Shown: piece after piece, positions 20,289 to 23,704 of the stretch
Numbering within the stretch: position 1 is the first letter of the stretch
Layout: every line of letters starts with the position of its first letter
Assembly (NCBI GenBank): GCA_963696295.1
Contig: CAVOJR010000001.1
Span: 768,001 to 832,000 of the forward strand
Direction of reading: 5' to 3'
Length of the DNA: 64,000 nucleotides
DNA from: an uncultured Chlamydiae bacterium
GTDB lineage: Bacteria; Chlamydiota; Chlamydiia; Chlamydiales; JAJFMB01
Translations under genes and position numbers: made by a program
Notes under the pieces: model-generated
Told to the model about the DNA's origin: nothing
Databases searched by the model: none
The model's input: only the letters and a program-made list of their open reading frames with translations

Positions 20289-20687
20289 ATGAAAATGAAA
20301 TTTTTATGCAAAAAGCTGGTGAGAGATCTTTGCCATTGCACTTTAGAGAGAAAAAATATCAAAGCCGTAACTGTTTCTTTGGAAAGGGAAGCATTGGTTG
20401 AGGCTTTTAGGGCTAAAATTGTCGAAGAAGCTGCTGAGGTGGCAGAAGCGAAAAATAGAGTGGAATTGATCGAAGAGCTGGCCGATCTTCAAGAGGTGAT
20501 TGAGTCATTTATTAAATTTTGCGACATCAGCCCTGCTCTTATTGAAGAGATACGAAAAGCAAAAAGGGAAAATATGGGGGGATTCGATGAGGGACTCTAT
20601 ATTGATCATATTGAAGTGCCGCACGATTCTCCCCATCTTAACGATTATTCATTACGGCCTCATAAGTATCCGCCGTTAGAGGCCTGA
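20289..20687 (+). CDS. MazG-like / PRA-PH nucleoside triphosphate pyrophosphohydrolase
   Basis: KLVRD, KIVEEAAEV, EELADLQEVI, KRENMGGF. Confidence 0.85.
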   Translation: MKMKFLCKKLVRDLCHCTLERKNIKAVTVSLEREALVEAFRAKIVEEAAEVAEAKNRVELIEELADLQEVIESFIKFCDISPALIEEIRKAKRENMGGFDEGLYIDHIEVPHDSPHLNDYSLRPHKYPPLEA

Positions 20688-20691
20688 AAGG

Positions 20692-21324
20692 TTATGGGAC
20701 TAATTGTTTGATAAAGTCAATACAACCTTGAGAGTTTCTGATAATCATATCAGCATATTGTTTACTTGGTTCCACATATTTTTCATGCATCGGCTTCACC
20801 TCTTCCGTATATTGCGACTTGACATGATCTAAAGAGCGCCCTCTTTCTTGCATATCCCGATCGATGCGGCGAAGCAACCGGATATCCCCATCTGTATCAA
20901 CAAAGATTTTGCAATTGAGCAGCTCTCTAATTTCGGATAGAGCCAAAATCAAAAATCCCTCCACAATAACAATCTCTGCAGGCTCTTTCAGCTGGGTAAA
21001 GGGTTCCCGTTTAGAAACGGTGAAATTATAAACCGGGCTATTAACCGGCTGGCCGGCCGCCAAAGCGATGAGATCCTTTTTTAAAAGCGCAACATCGATC
21101 GCCTCAGGGCATGCGTAGTTAGGCTTCCCAAATTCATTCAGGGGAATTTCCTGTTTGCTTCTATAATAGTCATCCTGATGAACAATGACAACTCGATCGC
21201 CAAAAAGGGTTTTCAAGTTATTTGCCAAAGTGGTTTTACCTGACGCTGAACCTCCGGCTATGCCGATCATAAATGCGGGTAATTCCCTACAGAAGAGAAG
21301 CAATAAGATTAAAATGCGGATCAT
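20692..21324 (-). CDS. udk: uridine kinase with N-terminal signal-like peptide
   Basis: IGIAGGSASGKTT, QDDYY, VEGFL, RLLRRIDRD..ERGR, KPMHEKYVEPSKQYAD; ATGA overlap with the adk-like stop. Confidence 0.9.
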   Translation of the reverse strand: MIRILILLLLFCRELPAFMIGIAGGSASGKTTLANNLKTLFGDRVVIVHQDDYYRSKQEIPLNEFGKPNYACPEAIDVALLKKDLIALAAGQPVNSPVYNFTVSKREPFTQLKEPAEIVIVEGFLILALSEIRELLNCKIFVDTDGDIRLLRRIDRDMQERGRSLDHVKSQYTEEVKPMHEKYVEPSKQYADMIIRNSQGCIDFIKQLVP

Positions 21325-22082
21325 TGGCAACTCTCCGAAAAATCTTCCACAGTTCCTGAAAAGTCCTTGACCTGTCCGGCAAAAAGGGAATATTTATCAA
21401 GGCAAAGAGGAAGGGGTTCAGCCGTGGAGAAAGAGATGTGGGGGAAACAACGGGTTACTTGAGTATATAAAAATGGTTCCACATCGGATCGATACTCGCG
21501 TATTCTTTTTTCAATCACTTCAGGGGTATCATTTATCCTAAATTTAAGGGGGGATTGGCATGCATTGCATATTCCTGAAACTAAAGGTATTGCGCTTTTT
21601 TTGTTATATACATGATTGCAGACGGGACATACCATGCGCTGCGCTATCCTTTCCATACACTGTGCGTTATCGGCCTCGAGAAAGATTGCCAAGGCGCGGA
21701 CGCGCAGATTAAGGGTGTCCAGCAATTGACACAAAAAAGCCAAATCTTCTTCCGAACGGGCAAACCCGTCGATGATAAAGGGACCGCCTTGCTCTGCCAA
21801 GATATGGATCTCCTTGCCGATCAAATCGTACATGATGCTTTTTTGAATGTAATTTCCCTTCCTGACAACTTCTGCTATCTCAATGCCAATCGGGGTTTGC
21901 TGATCGATTTCCCGACGAACCAGATCTCCTGCGCTAACATGGTGATAATAATGATTGTCACAAAGATGTTGCGAAAATGTGCCTTTTCCGGCGCCCGGAG
22001 GCCCTAATAGGATAATCACAGGCTCCAAAGCAGAAAGGAGCGAAGCGGCGGCAACGAACAAAAATACAAGATACTTTTTCAT
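21321..22082 (-). CDS. adk: adenylate/NMP kinase with N-terminal signal peptide
   Basis: GPPGAGKGT, HVSAGDLVR, IDGFAR, Zn-LID CPVC..CNAC, RINDT..VIEKR. Confidence 0.85.
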   Translation of the reverse strand: MKKYLVFLFVAAASLLSALEPVIILLGPPGAGKGTFSQHLCDNHYYHHVSAGDLVRREIDQQTPIGIEIAEVVRKGNYIQKSIMYDLIGKEIHILAEQGGPFIIDGFARSEEDLAFLCQLLDTLNLRVRALAIFLEADNAQCMERIAQRMVCPVCNHVYNKKSAIPLVSGICNACQSPLKFRINDTPEVIEKRIREYRSDVEPFLYTQVTRCFPHISFSTAEPLPLCLDKYSLFAGQVKDFSGTVEDFSESCQ

Positions 22083-23704
22083 AAACTATTCCTTGTTATC
22101 CATTTCTTAAGTTCAGGGTATTTATCTGAATCGGAATTTAAAAGTGTGTGATAAACCTCCATGGATCGCTCTACGGATTGCAATTGGAAGTGGATGATAT
22201 TTTTTTCCACTACAGGTTCTTGCAAATTGCCCAGCAGATCCAAGACGAGAAATTCTCTTTTTAAAAAACTTTTATAAAAATTACGGGGTGCTTCTTTGAT
22301 ATGCTCCCGATCAATAGGCGCAAGGAGGTAATGCTTTTTATGAGAATCTTTTAATATGAAATGGGAGAATTGACCCATGTAAGTAATCAGTTCATCGGTA
22401 GTTTTATAAAAATAATGTTCCTCCCCTTCTAACTTTAGATGTTCAAGCAGGTCGAAAGGCAGCTGATCGCCATTGGTGAGAAATTCGAAGATTCCTTTAT
22501 TTTGGCCATGAAATAAAAGGACTAAGTATTTCGGATCGATCACTACTTCGTTGTCAGTCAGATACAACATATTGCGATCAATCCCTTCGCTGTACAATTT
22601 TTTAATATAAGGATGCAATTCCGTGGAAAAAGGGATTCTAAAGCCTTGCAAAAATGCGCTTTTTAAAATATGCGCTTCTTTAAAAAGAATAGGAAAATAT
22701 TTTTTTTCGAGAATATGATCGTTTAAAGGAATCGATTTCTTTTCAATAAAAACCGAAAGGACTTCCCTCTCCTCTTTAGAGAGGTTATTCAAATTTAAAT
22801 CATCCTTAAAATGGTAATCTTCGACAAAACCGGAGGAGAAGTAATTAGATAAATACATCAAATAATGTCTTTGAATTTCAGCAATCAACCCCTTAGGCGC
22901 TTCAATGGAAAAGTTTTTCGAGTAGTCGATATGGGGCGAGGGAGTTTGGAGAAACTCATCCAAACTCATTTGTTTGCACTGGGTGTTATTATCCTGAAGG
23001 TAGAGATTAAACTTAATCTTTGAAAAATCGTAGATCAAGGGTTTGCTGCACTCATTGCGGTAGTCGCGTAAAAGACTGAACTTGCGATCGAAAAACTTGG
23101 TTAAAAAAAGAGTGGCGTAATATTTTGCCATATCTTTTTTGAAGATCATCGTGCACTGGGTCCAGGGATCATCGACCCATTTCGGATCCCGATAAATAAA
23201 TACACCCTCTTTCTCCAATACGCGGCAAATCTCCGTCACGAATTGATCCAGGGGCCCCTTATTCATCACATAGGAGAATACTTCGTGAGCCAAAGCGGAG
23301 GCTCCAACACCTGAAATGGTACTATCCCTGATCTGCTTCATATCGGTAGCTGACATAGTGGCAAGTTCTATCTTAGGTCCTGCGAGGCTATTGATATAAG
23401 ATTTGACTATAGGTCTTCTGATGGGAATAGAATTAATCACTAGCGGATCAATATCTGCAGCTATCAAGGTAGGACGAACGGTTTTTGGAAGCTGCAGCAC
23501 CATTTCAGCAATAGCATCCCCTCCGGTTCCAATATCGATAAATGTTCCATTGGTGTTTTTCTGAATATATTCAAGGAGCTGTGTCTTCTCAGACATATTT
23601 TTACTGATATTTGATAAATAGAAATCAATATAATCGTGCTTATGTTCCACGCTGCCATGCAACAAAGAACTCAATAGAAAAAGGAAGATATGCAAGTATT
23701 TCAT
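22079..23704 (-). CDS. large SAM-dependent methyltransferase-like protein with signal peptide
   Basis: IDIGTGG, AADID, SALAHEVFSY, RVLEKEGVFIYRD; about 350 aa of unassigned C-terminal sequence. Confidence 0.7.
   Translation of the reverse strand: MKYLHIFLFLLSSLLHGSVEHKHDYIDFYLSNISKNMSEKTQLLEYIQKNTNGTFIDIGTGGDAIAEMVLQLPKTVRPTLIAADIDPLVINSIPIRRPIVKSYINSLAGPKIELATMSATDMKQIRDSTISGVGASALAHEVFSYVMNKGPLDQFVTEICRVLEKEGVFIYRDPKWVDDPWTQCTMIFKKDMAKYYATLFLTKFFDRKFSLLRDYRNECSKPLIYDFSKIKFNLYLQDNNTQCKQMSLDEFLQTPSPHIDYSKNFSIEAPKGLIAEIQRHYLMYLSNYFSSGFVEDYHFKDDLNLNNLSKEEREVLSVFIEKKSIPLNDHILEKKYFPILFKEAHILKSAFLQGFRIPFSTELHPYIKKLYSEGIDRNMLYLTDNEVVIDPKYLVLLFHGQNKGIFEFLTNGDQLPFDLLEHLKLEGEEHYFYKTTDELITYMGQFSHFILKDSHKKHYLLAPIDREHIKEAPRNFYKSFLKREFLVLDLLGNLQEPVVEKNIIHFQLQSVERSMEVYHTLLNSDSDKYPELKKWITRNSL

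Follow-up and report, generated by a model that had tools for sequence, protein, structure and literature searches.

Within a 64,000-nucleotide window from an uncultured Chlamydiae bacterium (assembly GCA_963696295.1, contig CAVOJR010000001.1, positions 768,001 to 832,000; hereafter "the window"), a minus-strand operon encodes a predicted S-adenosylmethionine (SAM)-dependent methyltransferase (MTase) of an uncharacterised family, a nucleoside monophosphate (NMP) kinase of the adenylate kinase (Adk) family and a uridine/cytidine kinase (Udk), each with a predicted Sec leader. As judged from gene neighbourhoods, the conserved unit at this locus is the MTase plus the Adk-like NMP kinase, usually accompanied by a Nudix hydrolase of the DR_0079 type, and its distribution across Chlamydiota and Babelota is patchy. 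We consider it about evenly balanced whether MTase and kinase form the core of a mobile cassette for an extracytoplasmic methylated nucleotide, whose substrate, compartment and purpose we infer below. A first-pass annotation of the window had proposed an extracytoplasmic pathway for modified nucleotides; this is still the best reading, carried by the leaders and by the links between the MTase and nucleotide enzymes, while the gene trio as a unit, adenylate kinase as an activity and a role for a neighbouring MazG-like gene did not hold up.

Re-reading the open reading frames, strands, gene overlaps and leaders from the window sequence reproduced the arrangement that this annotation had described. 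The MTase gene (541 aa; 22079..23704, minus strand) and the kinase gene (253 aa; 21321..22082, minus) share an ATGA stop/start overlap at 22079..22082 (minus), and a second one at 21321..21324 (minus) joins the kinase gene to udk (210 aa; 20692..21324, minus). Each junction is spanned by short soil-DNA contigs, with no difference in one case and 1 in the other; they attest to presence only, and the runs are possibly related to the source. The source genome (3.43 Mb, 97% complete) contains four genes for NTT carriers; from these, from a DUF818 gene beside the operon and from the nearest named relatives of the MTase, which are assigned to Chlamydiae, we take it for an environmental chlamydia.

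To delineate the MTase family, we used a protein search (52 matches) and a profile search (247 proteins). The gene is present in six of 400 Chlamydiota genomes, the window genome counted, and in its full-length type in 18 of 261 Babelota/Dependentiae genomes (three of these being known positives); further relatives occur in one alphaproteobacterial metagenome-assembled genome, in Patescibacteria and in Streptomyces. In a sample of 301 Patescibacteria genomes, the centre genome alone had a match along the full length; the remaining 214 matches were confined to a generic MTase domain. Restricting the set to frames of at least 300 aa and removing duplicates left 43 distinct MTase loci—shorter frames, such as a broken copy in genome G354, were dropped—of which 38 are leader-bearing. 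Among these 38, the MTase is adjoined by the Adk-like gene in 27 and by the DR_0079-type Nudix in 28, five of the latter being fused to the MTase C-terminus. Kinase and/or Nudix are present in 32 of them; the other six comprise three loci without flank, one with another Nudix and two with the MTase alone. Gene order varies (MT-Nudix-kinase, kinase-MT-Nudix, MT-kinase-Nudix and MT-kinase). Where a locus has both genes (21 loci), distances among the MTases are correlated with those among the kinases (Mantel r 0.73, 0/2000 permutations, with kin that are not independent), and both trees contain the same four groups, one Babelota group standing beside a chlamydial group under midpoint rooting. Judging from neighbourhood and fusion, the MTase is thus tied to nucleotide enzymes across phyla. 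The MTase-kinase-udk trio, which had been taken for the system itself, was rejected as a conserved operon: udk adjoins the MTase at one of the 43 loci, namely that of the window, and the usual third gene is the Nudix, which is absent here.

The MTase matches Methyltransf_11 weakly (0.021). The earlier call of a methyltransferase-like protein was strengthened by an AlphaFold2 model (pLDDT 89.9) with a class I SAM fold, whose Rossmann-like seven-strand core comprises residues ~17-175 and 455-511. Motif I (D/E-x-G-x-G-x-G) and the acidic residue at the end of strand 2 are represented by D57, G59, G61 and D84, all invariant in a first alignment (A1); G59, G61 and D84 are kept in at least 90% of a wider alignment (A2) of 48 rows picked to span the family. 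On this model, the protein is a class I SAM-dependent methyltransferase, with methyl transfer as its predicted reaction. Its best structural neighbour was OxaG (VIA Z 16.2, rmsd [root-mean-square deviation] 3.5, 187 residues aligned), one of several generic small-molecule methyltransferases tied at Z 13-16; the Foldseek search of the model reached E 1e-7. Sequence searches of solved structures gave no match with A1 and matched the MTase core only with A2, and Atlas returned generic methyltransferase clusters and, for residues 170-541, nothing above 0.83. The core is interrupted by an insertion of ~280 aa (residues 176-460; 22325..23179, minus) with invariant E276, H280, E426, E429 and Y431. 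Folded alone, this insertion reached a pLDDT of 93.2, and a structure search with it found no clear match (best Z 3.7; best Foldseek E 0.13), which does not imply a new fold; the insertion is a probable substrate-binding cap.

Distant members of the family are leaderless, and the C-terminus of 14 of 16 long leaderless representatives is a kinase domain of the P-loop or P-loop-like type. This fused domain and the kinase domain found in dCTP deaminases that act against phages are related (E about 1e-19). One leaderless locus fuses the MTase to a GreA C-terminal domain and has a MazG-like neighbour (L064:2350-4584), and at another an MTase-P-loop kinase fusion adjoins a gene for a GreA C-terminal domain (L046:704-3339). 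The neighbours at a further locus (L059) are a CYTH gene, a dTMP-kinase-like gene (by eye, no Pfam match) and a Nudix. By eye, NAD-kinase-like, Nudix-regulator-like and PnuC/NadR-like genes neighbour more distant MTases at three Patescibacteria loci (L176, L178 and L179). A viral origin of the MTase found no support: in viral contigs, searched with A1, none of 76 pattern matches was confirmed as a relative, and phage records contained none; the genes that flank the window cassette are not phage-like.

Leaders were assessed with a heuristic of our own for the n-h-c anatomy of Sec leaders (small residues at -3/-1), not with SignalP. It passed 63 of 8037 internal-Met controls (0.8%) and 493 of the 2799 called genes of the source genome. 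False positives arise on N-terminal beta strands, for instance in shikimate- and guanylate-kinase-like genes, and genome-wide counts are approximate, the gene caller having taken a shadow reading frame in place of the Adk-like gene. The claim that each of the three proteins bears a leader was borne out by the heuristic and by conservation in homologues: predicted leaders were found on the MTase (17 aa; 23654..23704, minus; cleavage predicted directly before a conserved HK motif), on the NMP kinase (18 aa; 22029..22082, minus) and on Udk (17 aa; 21274..21324, minus), the last with an in-frame ATG behind it (Met19, 21268-21270). Close MTase homologues with a near-complete N-terminus passed in 37 of 44 cases, most of the seven failures either starting late or showing a hydrophobic leader on inspection. 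Of the cassette-typed kinase frames, 26 of 29 passed, and none of 26 cassette kinases, that of the window included, has an inner ATG behind the leader. This anatomy, with its small -1/-3 residues, is kept in two phyla despite low sequence identity. Nor do homologues start downstream of the leaders, a point on which the first-pass annotation had made export depend. The leaderless MTase homologues (43 of the 48 rows of A2) have their first residue a median of 6 positions ahead of the conserved Lys22, at the predicted cleavage site of the window MTase. Since predicted signal peptides are common in these lineages—in Chromulinavorax, they were reported for 44% of coding sequences (PMC6561590)—the leaders need to be weighed against this background.

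The second gene product matches Pfam ADK and ADK_lid (E 1e-28). It resembles adenylate kinases of the long-LID, zinc type in its P-loop, LID cysteines and Arg36/88/123/156/167, and differs from them in two substitutions, Thr31 to Ala and Gln92 to Asp, at positions that bond adenine N7 and N6 (PMC3369945). Both residues are lost in all 28 cassette kinases compared, with Arg36 kept in 28/28 and Arg88 in 26/28, whereas housekeeping Adk mostly retain Thr31 (27/29) and always Gln92 (29/29). Cassette kinases and housekeeping Adk fall into separate clades (SH-aLRT 95, quick tree), and the window kinase falls below all adk cut-offs (best 157 vs 168; TIGR01351 156.8), the other adk of the genome scoring 245.6. 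It also misses the cut-off of the UMP-CMP kinase model TIGR01359 (85.1 vs 207.6 bits); Ala at position 31 is, we take it, the UMP/CMP-kinase state as well, and the only state in common with that family. Because both adenine-recognition residues are lost throughout, the cassette kinases are probably not adenylate kinases, and "adenylate kinase" as an activity was not sustained. A VakA profile matched the window kinase weakly and generically (E 7e-5), and a search for longer kinase forms (2 matches only) found no fusion to the MTase. The same clade occurs in two further settings. A second cassette type (L005/L183:8121-12546, L008 and P0193) combines a long HD-like protein, a leader-bearing APH/choline-kinase-like enzyme and the clade's kinase, and is once fused into a single leader-bearing protein; a third arrangement (L006/L184:6788-10586) comprises an unknown 273-aa gene, a Nudix, a HAD phosphatase, a gene that resembles udk but has no leader, and a cassette-clade kinase with a leader.

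The substrate of the proposed pathway is probably a pyrimidine, more specifically probably a cytosine, nucleotide of a non-standard kind, given the Nudix match, the lost kinase residues and a change in Udk. Over its whole length, the cassette Nudix best matches DR_0079 (E 7e-42; next match 4e-7) with an intact Nudix box, and DR_0079 is listed as a CDP pyrophosphatase that prefers cytosine di- and triphosphates (PMC5389931, PMC6722170). Udk matches Pfam PRK/Udk (6e-41), passes the PRK05480 equivalog cut-off (221 vs 180 bits), misses that of TIGR00235 (195.5 vs 220.3) and keeps the P-loop, catalytic Asp62 and Arg166. Aligned to UCK2, it has Ala at the position of Asp84, a ligand of the 2'/3'-OH, and Ser at that of His117, which (as His or Tyr) belongs to the base pocket (PMC9163393). 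Asp84 is kept in 35 of 35 other chlamydial sequences and His117 in 25 of 35; the Asp84 change, seen in one sequence only, hints at the ribose.

The MazG-like gene (132 aa; 20289..20687, plus strand), a leaderless NTP pyrophosphatase-like member of the Pfam PRA-PH/MazG clan, converges on the operon as first described. Its membership of the system was rejected as a general rule, because its homologues lie beside a cassette at 0 of 16 loci; it is probably a passenger, despite the low GC content at third codon positions (GC3) common to the block.

That the leaders might be peculiar to these operon kinases proved wrong, as the trait is lineage-wide among salvage enzymes. A search for Udk homologues was positive in 34 of 150 Chlamydiota genomes, and 26 of 28 frames (from 30 loci) passed the heuristic, one of them falsely, one miss having a visible leader. 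Two Udk of family f36, whose genomes are small and taken as Chlamydiaceae, have a short Met/Leu-rich start only; in the available text of one report, C. pneumoniae udk is treated as a salvage gene and a leader is not mentioned (PMC3091639). Most chlamydial Udk lack an inner ATG. Their leader sits directly before the P-loop strand (L085-L113, L203-L207), and the gene often lies beside tgt and a leaderless thymidine kinase gene; one f36 genome carries two broken udk copies with in-frame stops (G081:C3:75586-81470). On this comparison, the window Udk was recruited locally, out of a pool of salvage enzymes that bear leaders throughout the lineage. In the source genome, ndk2 is leader-bearing and in tandem with a leaderless ndk1, two Nudix genes bear leaders, and so do three of six phosphoribosyltransferase-fold genes, a fourth pass looking false; the three are, we presume from motifs, Apt-, Upp- and Prs-like. 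Genes that we likewise take to be cytidine-deaminase-like and carbamoyltransferase-like are leader-bearing, and the Cmk- and Tmk-like genes are leaderless. Leader-bearing, normally cytoplasmic enzymes with predicted export lie at G000:C1:481272-482222, 766085, about 858500, 3087035, 2669558, 1592507, 2598289, 1280016, 1281105 and 3050375; besides those named above, they include SAM-decarboxylase-like genes and NDP-sugar epimerases, the names being given mostly by motif.

A search of the source genome for separate leaderless copies of adk and udk, whose lack the first-pass annotation had counted against export, gave a mixed answer. The window udk is the only udk match, and a second adk (Adk1) is present and itself leader-bearing; on paper, two of the findings named as adverse were thus partly obtained. 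Among housekeeping Adk, 15 of 25 have a leader, and 10 of these 15 an ATG directly behind it (among them L001:1429-2163 [G000:C1:187004-187729], L013, L014, L016, L019, L020, L024 and L027). In five inner-ATG Adk, this start has strong Shine-Dalgarno pairing (-8 kcal/mol or better), several times inside leader codons. Because inner ATGs occur in 10/15 leader-bearing Adk and in 0/26 cassette kinases, the essential Adk seems to retain a cytoplasmic isoform beside an exported one, and the cassette kinase does not. Babelota housekeeping Adk are leaderless (3/3).

Literature on Waddlia bears on the fate of such proteins. Of 19 Waddlia proteins in the host cytosol, 13 have signal peptides (PMC7143554), and Waddlia Ndk2, with a leader scored 0.999 by SignalP, was found to be secreted and, in heterologous systems, to enter compartments of the host (PMC13318545). 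The available text of the Ndk2 report does not mention adenylate kinase, uridine kinase or the periplasm. In the literature searched, Ndk2 is the only exported chlamydial salvage enzyme described, and no description of the cassette or of an exported chlamydial Adk or Udk was found there, the literature searched being mostly without subscription papers.

Put together, these features fit a pathway in which the three proteins would leave via Sec for the periplasm, the inclusion or the host cytosol. Udk would phosphorylate a pyrimidine nucleoside to the NMP, and the MTase would methylate nucleoside or NMP with host SAM—which would be on hand if the enzymes reach the host cytosol—most likely on a cytosine nucleotide, at base or ribose. 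The re-tuned NMP kinase would then form the diphosphate, which host kinases or the genome's own leader-bearing Ndk2 would convert to the triphosphate. Most other carriers have a leaderless, cytoplasmic Nudix that may destroy modified CDP/CTP entering by the NTT carriers, as self-protection; where fused, the Nudix would be exported together with the MTase. The product might interfere with signalling or with the synthesis of nucleic acids, in the host or in its viruses. A lack of ATP in the periplasm appears to be a weak objection, because host ATP presumably must traverse the periplasm to reach the four NTT carriers. An exported pathway that is joined to an exported salvage network and produces, inside the inclusion or the host, a methylated pyrimidine nucleotide is to us a proposition with as much for it as against it.

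Salvage alone, in which Udk and a UMP/CMP-type kinase turn host nucleosides into NTPs for NTT import and the MTase is a passenger acting on some other small molecule, would suit the leaders seen on Adk1, Ndk2, three phosphoribosyltransferase-fold genes and almost every chlamydial Udk. The occurrence of the kinase clade with other partners fits this explanation, as does Ala31 if it marks the UMP/CMP-kinase state, which we presume; so do the four NTT genes, together with the import of CTP by chlamydiae (PMC5113988). Salvage alone leaves unexplained, however, the repeated MTase-kinase fusions of leaderless homologues, the MTase-Nudix fusions, the congruent trees, the rarity of the cassette (6/400) and a CTP/CDP-destroying enzyme in the operon, and we regard it as doubtful, if the most serious competitor. 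A purine product made by the same cassette logic, e.g. N6- or N7-methyl-AMP, draws on the kinase being an Adk by descent: the contacts lost with Thr31 and Gln92 are exactly those to adenine N7 and N6, leaving room for a methyl group, and mRNA-cap guanine-N7 methyltransferases are in the top Foldseek rows, where they are indistinguishable from other rows. The Nudix, Udk and the fused kinase of the leaderless forms point instead to cytosine or pyrimidine nucleotides, which makes a purine quite unlikely.

An MTase that served as an effector by modifying a macromolecule, be it RNA or protein of host or virus, would leave its partners, kinase and Nudix, to recycle or remove methylated nucleotides set free by turnover. 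The 280-aa insertion of unmatched fold, with its conserved Arg/Lys/His, and the GreA-like domains fused or adjoining at two leaderless loci would fit such a role; the best structural neighbours are small-molecule methyltransferases, however, and a fused NMP-kinase-like domain suits a small substrate, so we consider this improbable. Finally, the leaders might not be export signals at all—membrane anchors, or left untranslated through downstream starts—and the enzymes cytoplasmic. The sole udk of the genome does have the in-frame Met19, both adk are leader-bearing, the separate Nudix is leaderless and the leader calls come from a heuristic only. Against this stand the n-h-c anatomy kept over two phyla, the lack of an inner ATG in cassette kinases and most Udk, the leaderless MTase homologues that start at the predicted cleavage site, and Waddlia Ndk2, which needs its leader for exit from the inclusion in a surrogate host (PMC13318545); we consider cytoplasmic enzymes very improbable. 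A more specific version of the exported pathway is viperin-like: base- or ribose-methylated CTP would block viral polymerases (e.g. in giant-virus factories) or those of the host, and the cytoplasmic CDP/CTP Nudix would protect the bacterium, an intracellular inhabitant of protists; the pathway would build on an exported salvage network of environmental chlamydiae that had so far escaped notice. Chlamydial symbionts do block giant-virus replication in amoebae, in a report whose available text does not use the word "mechanism" (PMC9457554); we think this version unlikely.

Several observations weigh against the preferred reading of an exported pathway for a methylated pyrimidine nucleotide. The fold search, with its tied scores, points to no substrate for the MTase. 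At two loci (L067 and L068) the MTase stands alone, the surroundings of the homologue on a Streptomyces plasmid are uninformative and without nucleotide genes, and distant Patescibacteria MTases adjoin NAD genes (L176:1670-4459, L178:7549-10343, L179:7161-9699). The kinase clade also pairs or fuses in loci without the MTase (L005, L008, L006 and P0193), the partner there being an APH/choline-kinase-like enzyme or else a Udk-like gene that lacks a leader, and since the same clade takes such other partners, the cassette kinase may be a general NMP kinase. The source genome has no cassette-type Nudix (best match E 3e-6), and a Nudix that is leaderless as a separate gene and sits on a leader-bearing MTase when fused fits self-protection poorly. 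The MazG-like gene has no general link to the cassette, and the Asp84 loss in Udk concerns a single sequence and is possibly decay.

As to the surroundings, GC3 is low in all four genes of the block (6th-14th percentile; flanking genes 47th), and the window Udk query found no udk in two same-family genomes (81% and 94% complete). Given these two observations, the four-gene block was probably acquired laterally. A promoter and terminator scan of the locus gave chance-level results, and a DUF818 gene adjoins the operon. Elsewhere in the window lie an AbiEi/AbiEii type IV toxin-antitoxin pair (15719-17160) and divergent IS200/IS605-like tnpA and tnpB (13238-14763, by eye). A nicotinate phosphoribosyltransferase-like gene (10615-12207, by eye) lies ~8 kb from the cassette; a similar one is found ~7 kb from the cassette in genome G014 (L180:72-1544), a proximity that is probably due to chance. 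Orphan effector-like genes without Pfam support occupy 12193-13037, 19146-20156 and 28240-32253; the first region consists of an apparent tandem pair (12193-12609 and 12657-13037), and one orphan gene contains leucine-rich repeats (30366-31274).

If the pathway is real, it may represent a new route of action on the host cell or on viruses inside it. The MTase-kinase-Nudix cassette would be mobile between Chlamydiota and Babelota as a unit, with leaders gained only in such host-dependent lineages, and it predicts that a modified nucleotide is made in another organism's compartment. Independently of the MTase, the leaders on Udk, Adk, Ndk2 and phosphoribosyltransferases, together with the inner start of Adk, suggest salvage outside the cytoplasm, upstream of the NTT carriers; in environmental chlamydiae, this would add to the usual account of how nucleotides are parasitised.

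Among known systems, Ndk2 of Waddlia chondrophila is comparable in that a nucleotide kinase usually confined to the cytoplasm bears a Sec-type leader, and the source genome has the same ndk1/ndk2 tandem; unlike the cassette, it is a single enzyme, read as a nuclear and Golgi effector, with no MTase, NMP kinase or pathway view attached (PMC13318545). DR_0079 of Deinococcus radiodurans is matched over its whole length by the usual third gene, which differs in being sometimes fused to a leader-bearing MTase, is missing from the window copy and takes its presumed specificity from homology. PADLOC 2.0 gave no match for the MTase and otherwise weak or domain-level matches only (VakA, E 7e-5, for the kinase; the dCTP deaminase kinase domain for fused homologues). 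Phage modified-base clusters, such as that for hydroxymethyl-dCMP in T4, combine a modifying enzyme with a dNMP kinase and a dNTP pyrophosphatase. The cassette resembles them in that a nucleotide would be modified, phosphorylated by a re-tuned NMP kinase and, as NTP, removed by a pyrophosphatase; it differs in being bacterial, in its Sec leaders, in its class I SAM enzyme and in its surroundings, which contain no gene for a polymerase or for DNA modification. Prokaryotic viperin systems with an associated kinase make ddhNTP chain terminators. Like the cassette, they are small and join a SAM enzyme that modifies nucleotides to a kinase for nucleotides, to which the weak VakA match corresponds; unlike them, the cassette has a class I MTase in place of radical-SAM viperin, and its export is predicted. 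As tested, the cassette lacks the radical-SAM gene that defines viperin systems and has no confirmed relative in viral contigs (searched with A1) or phage records, so that membership of either kind of system appears unlikely; by analogy it would operate like both.

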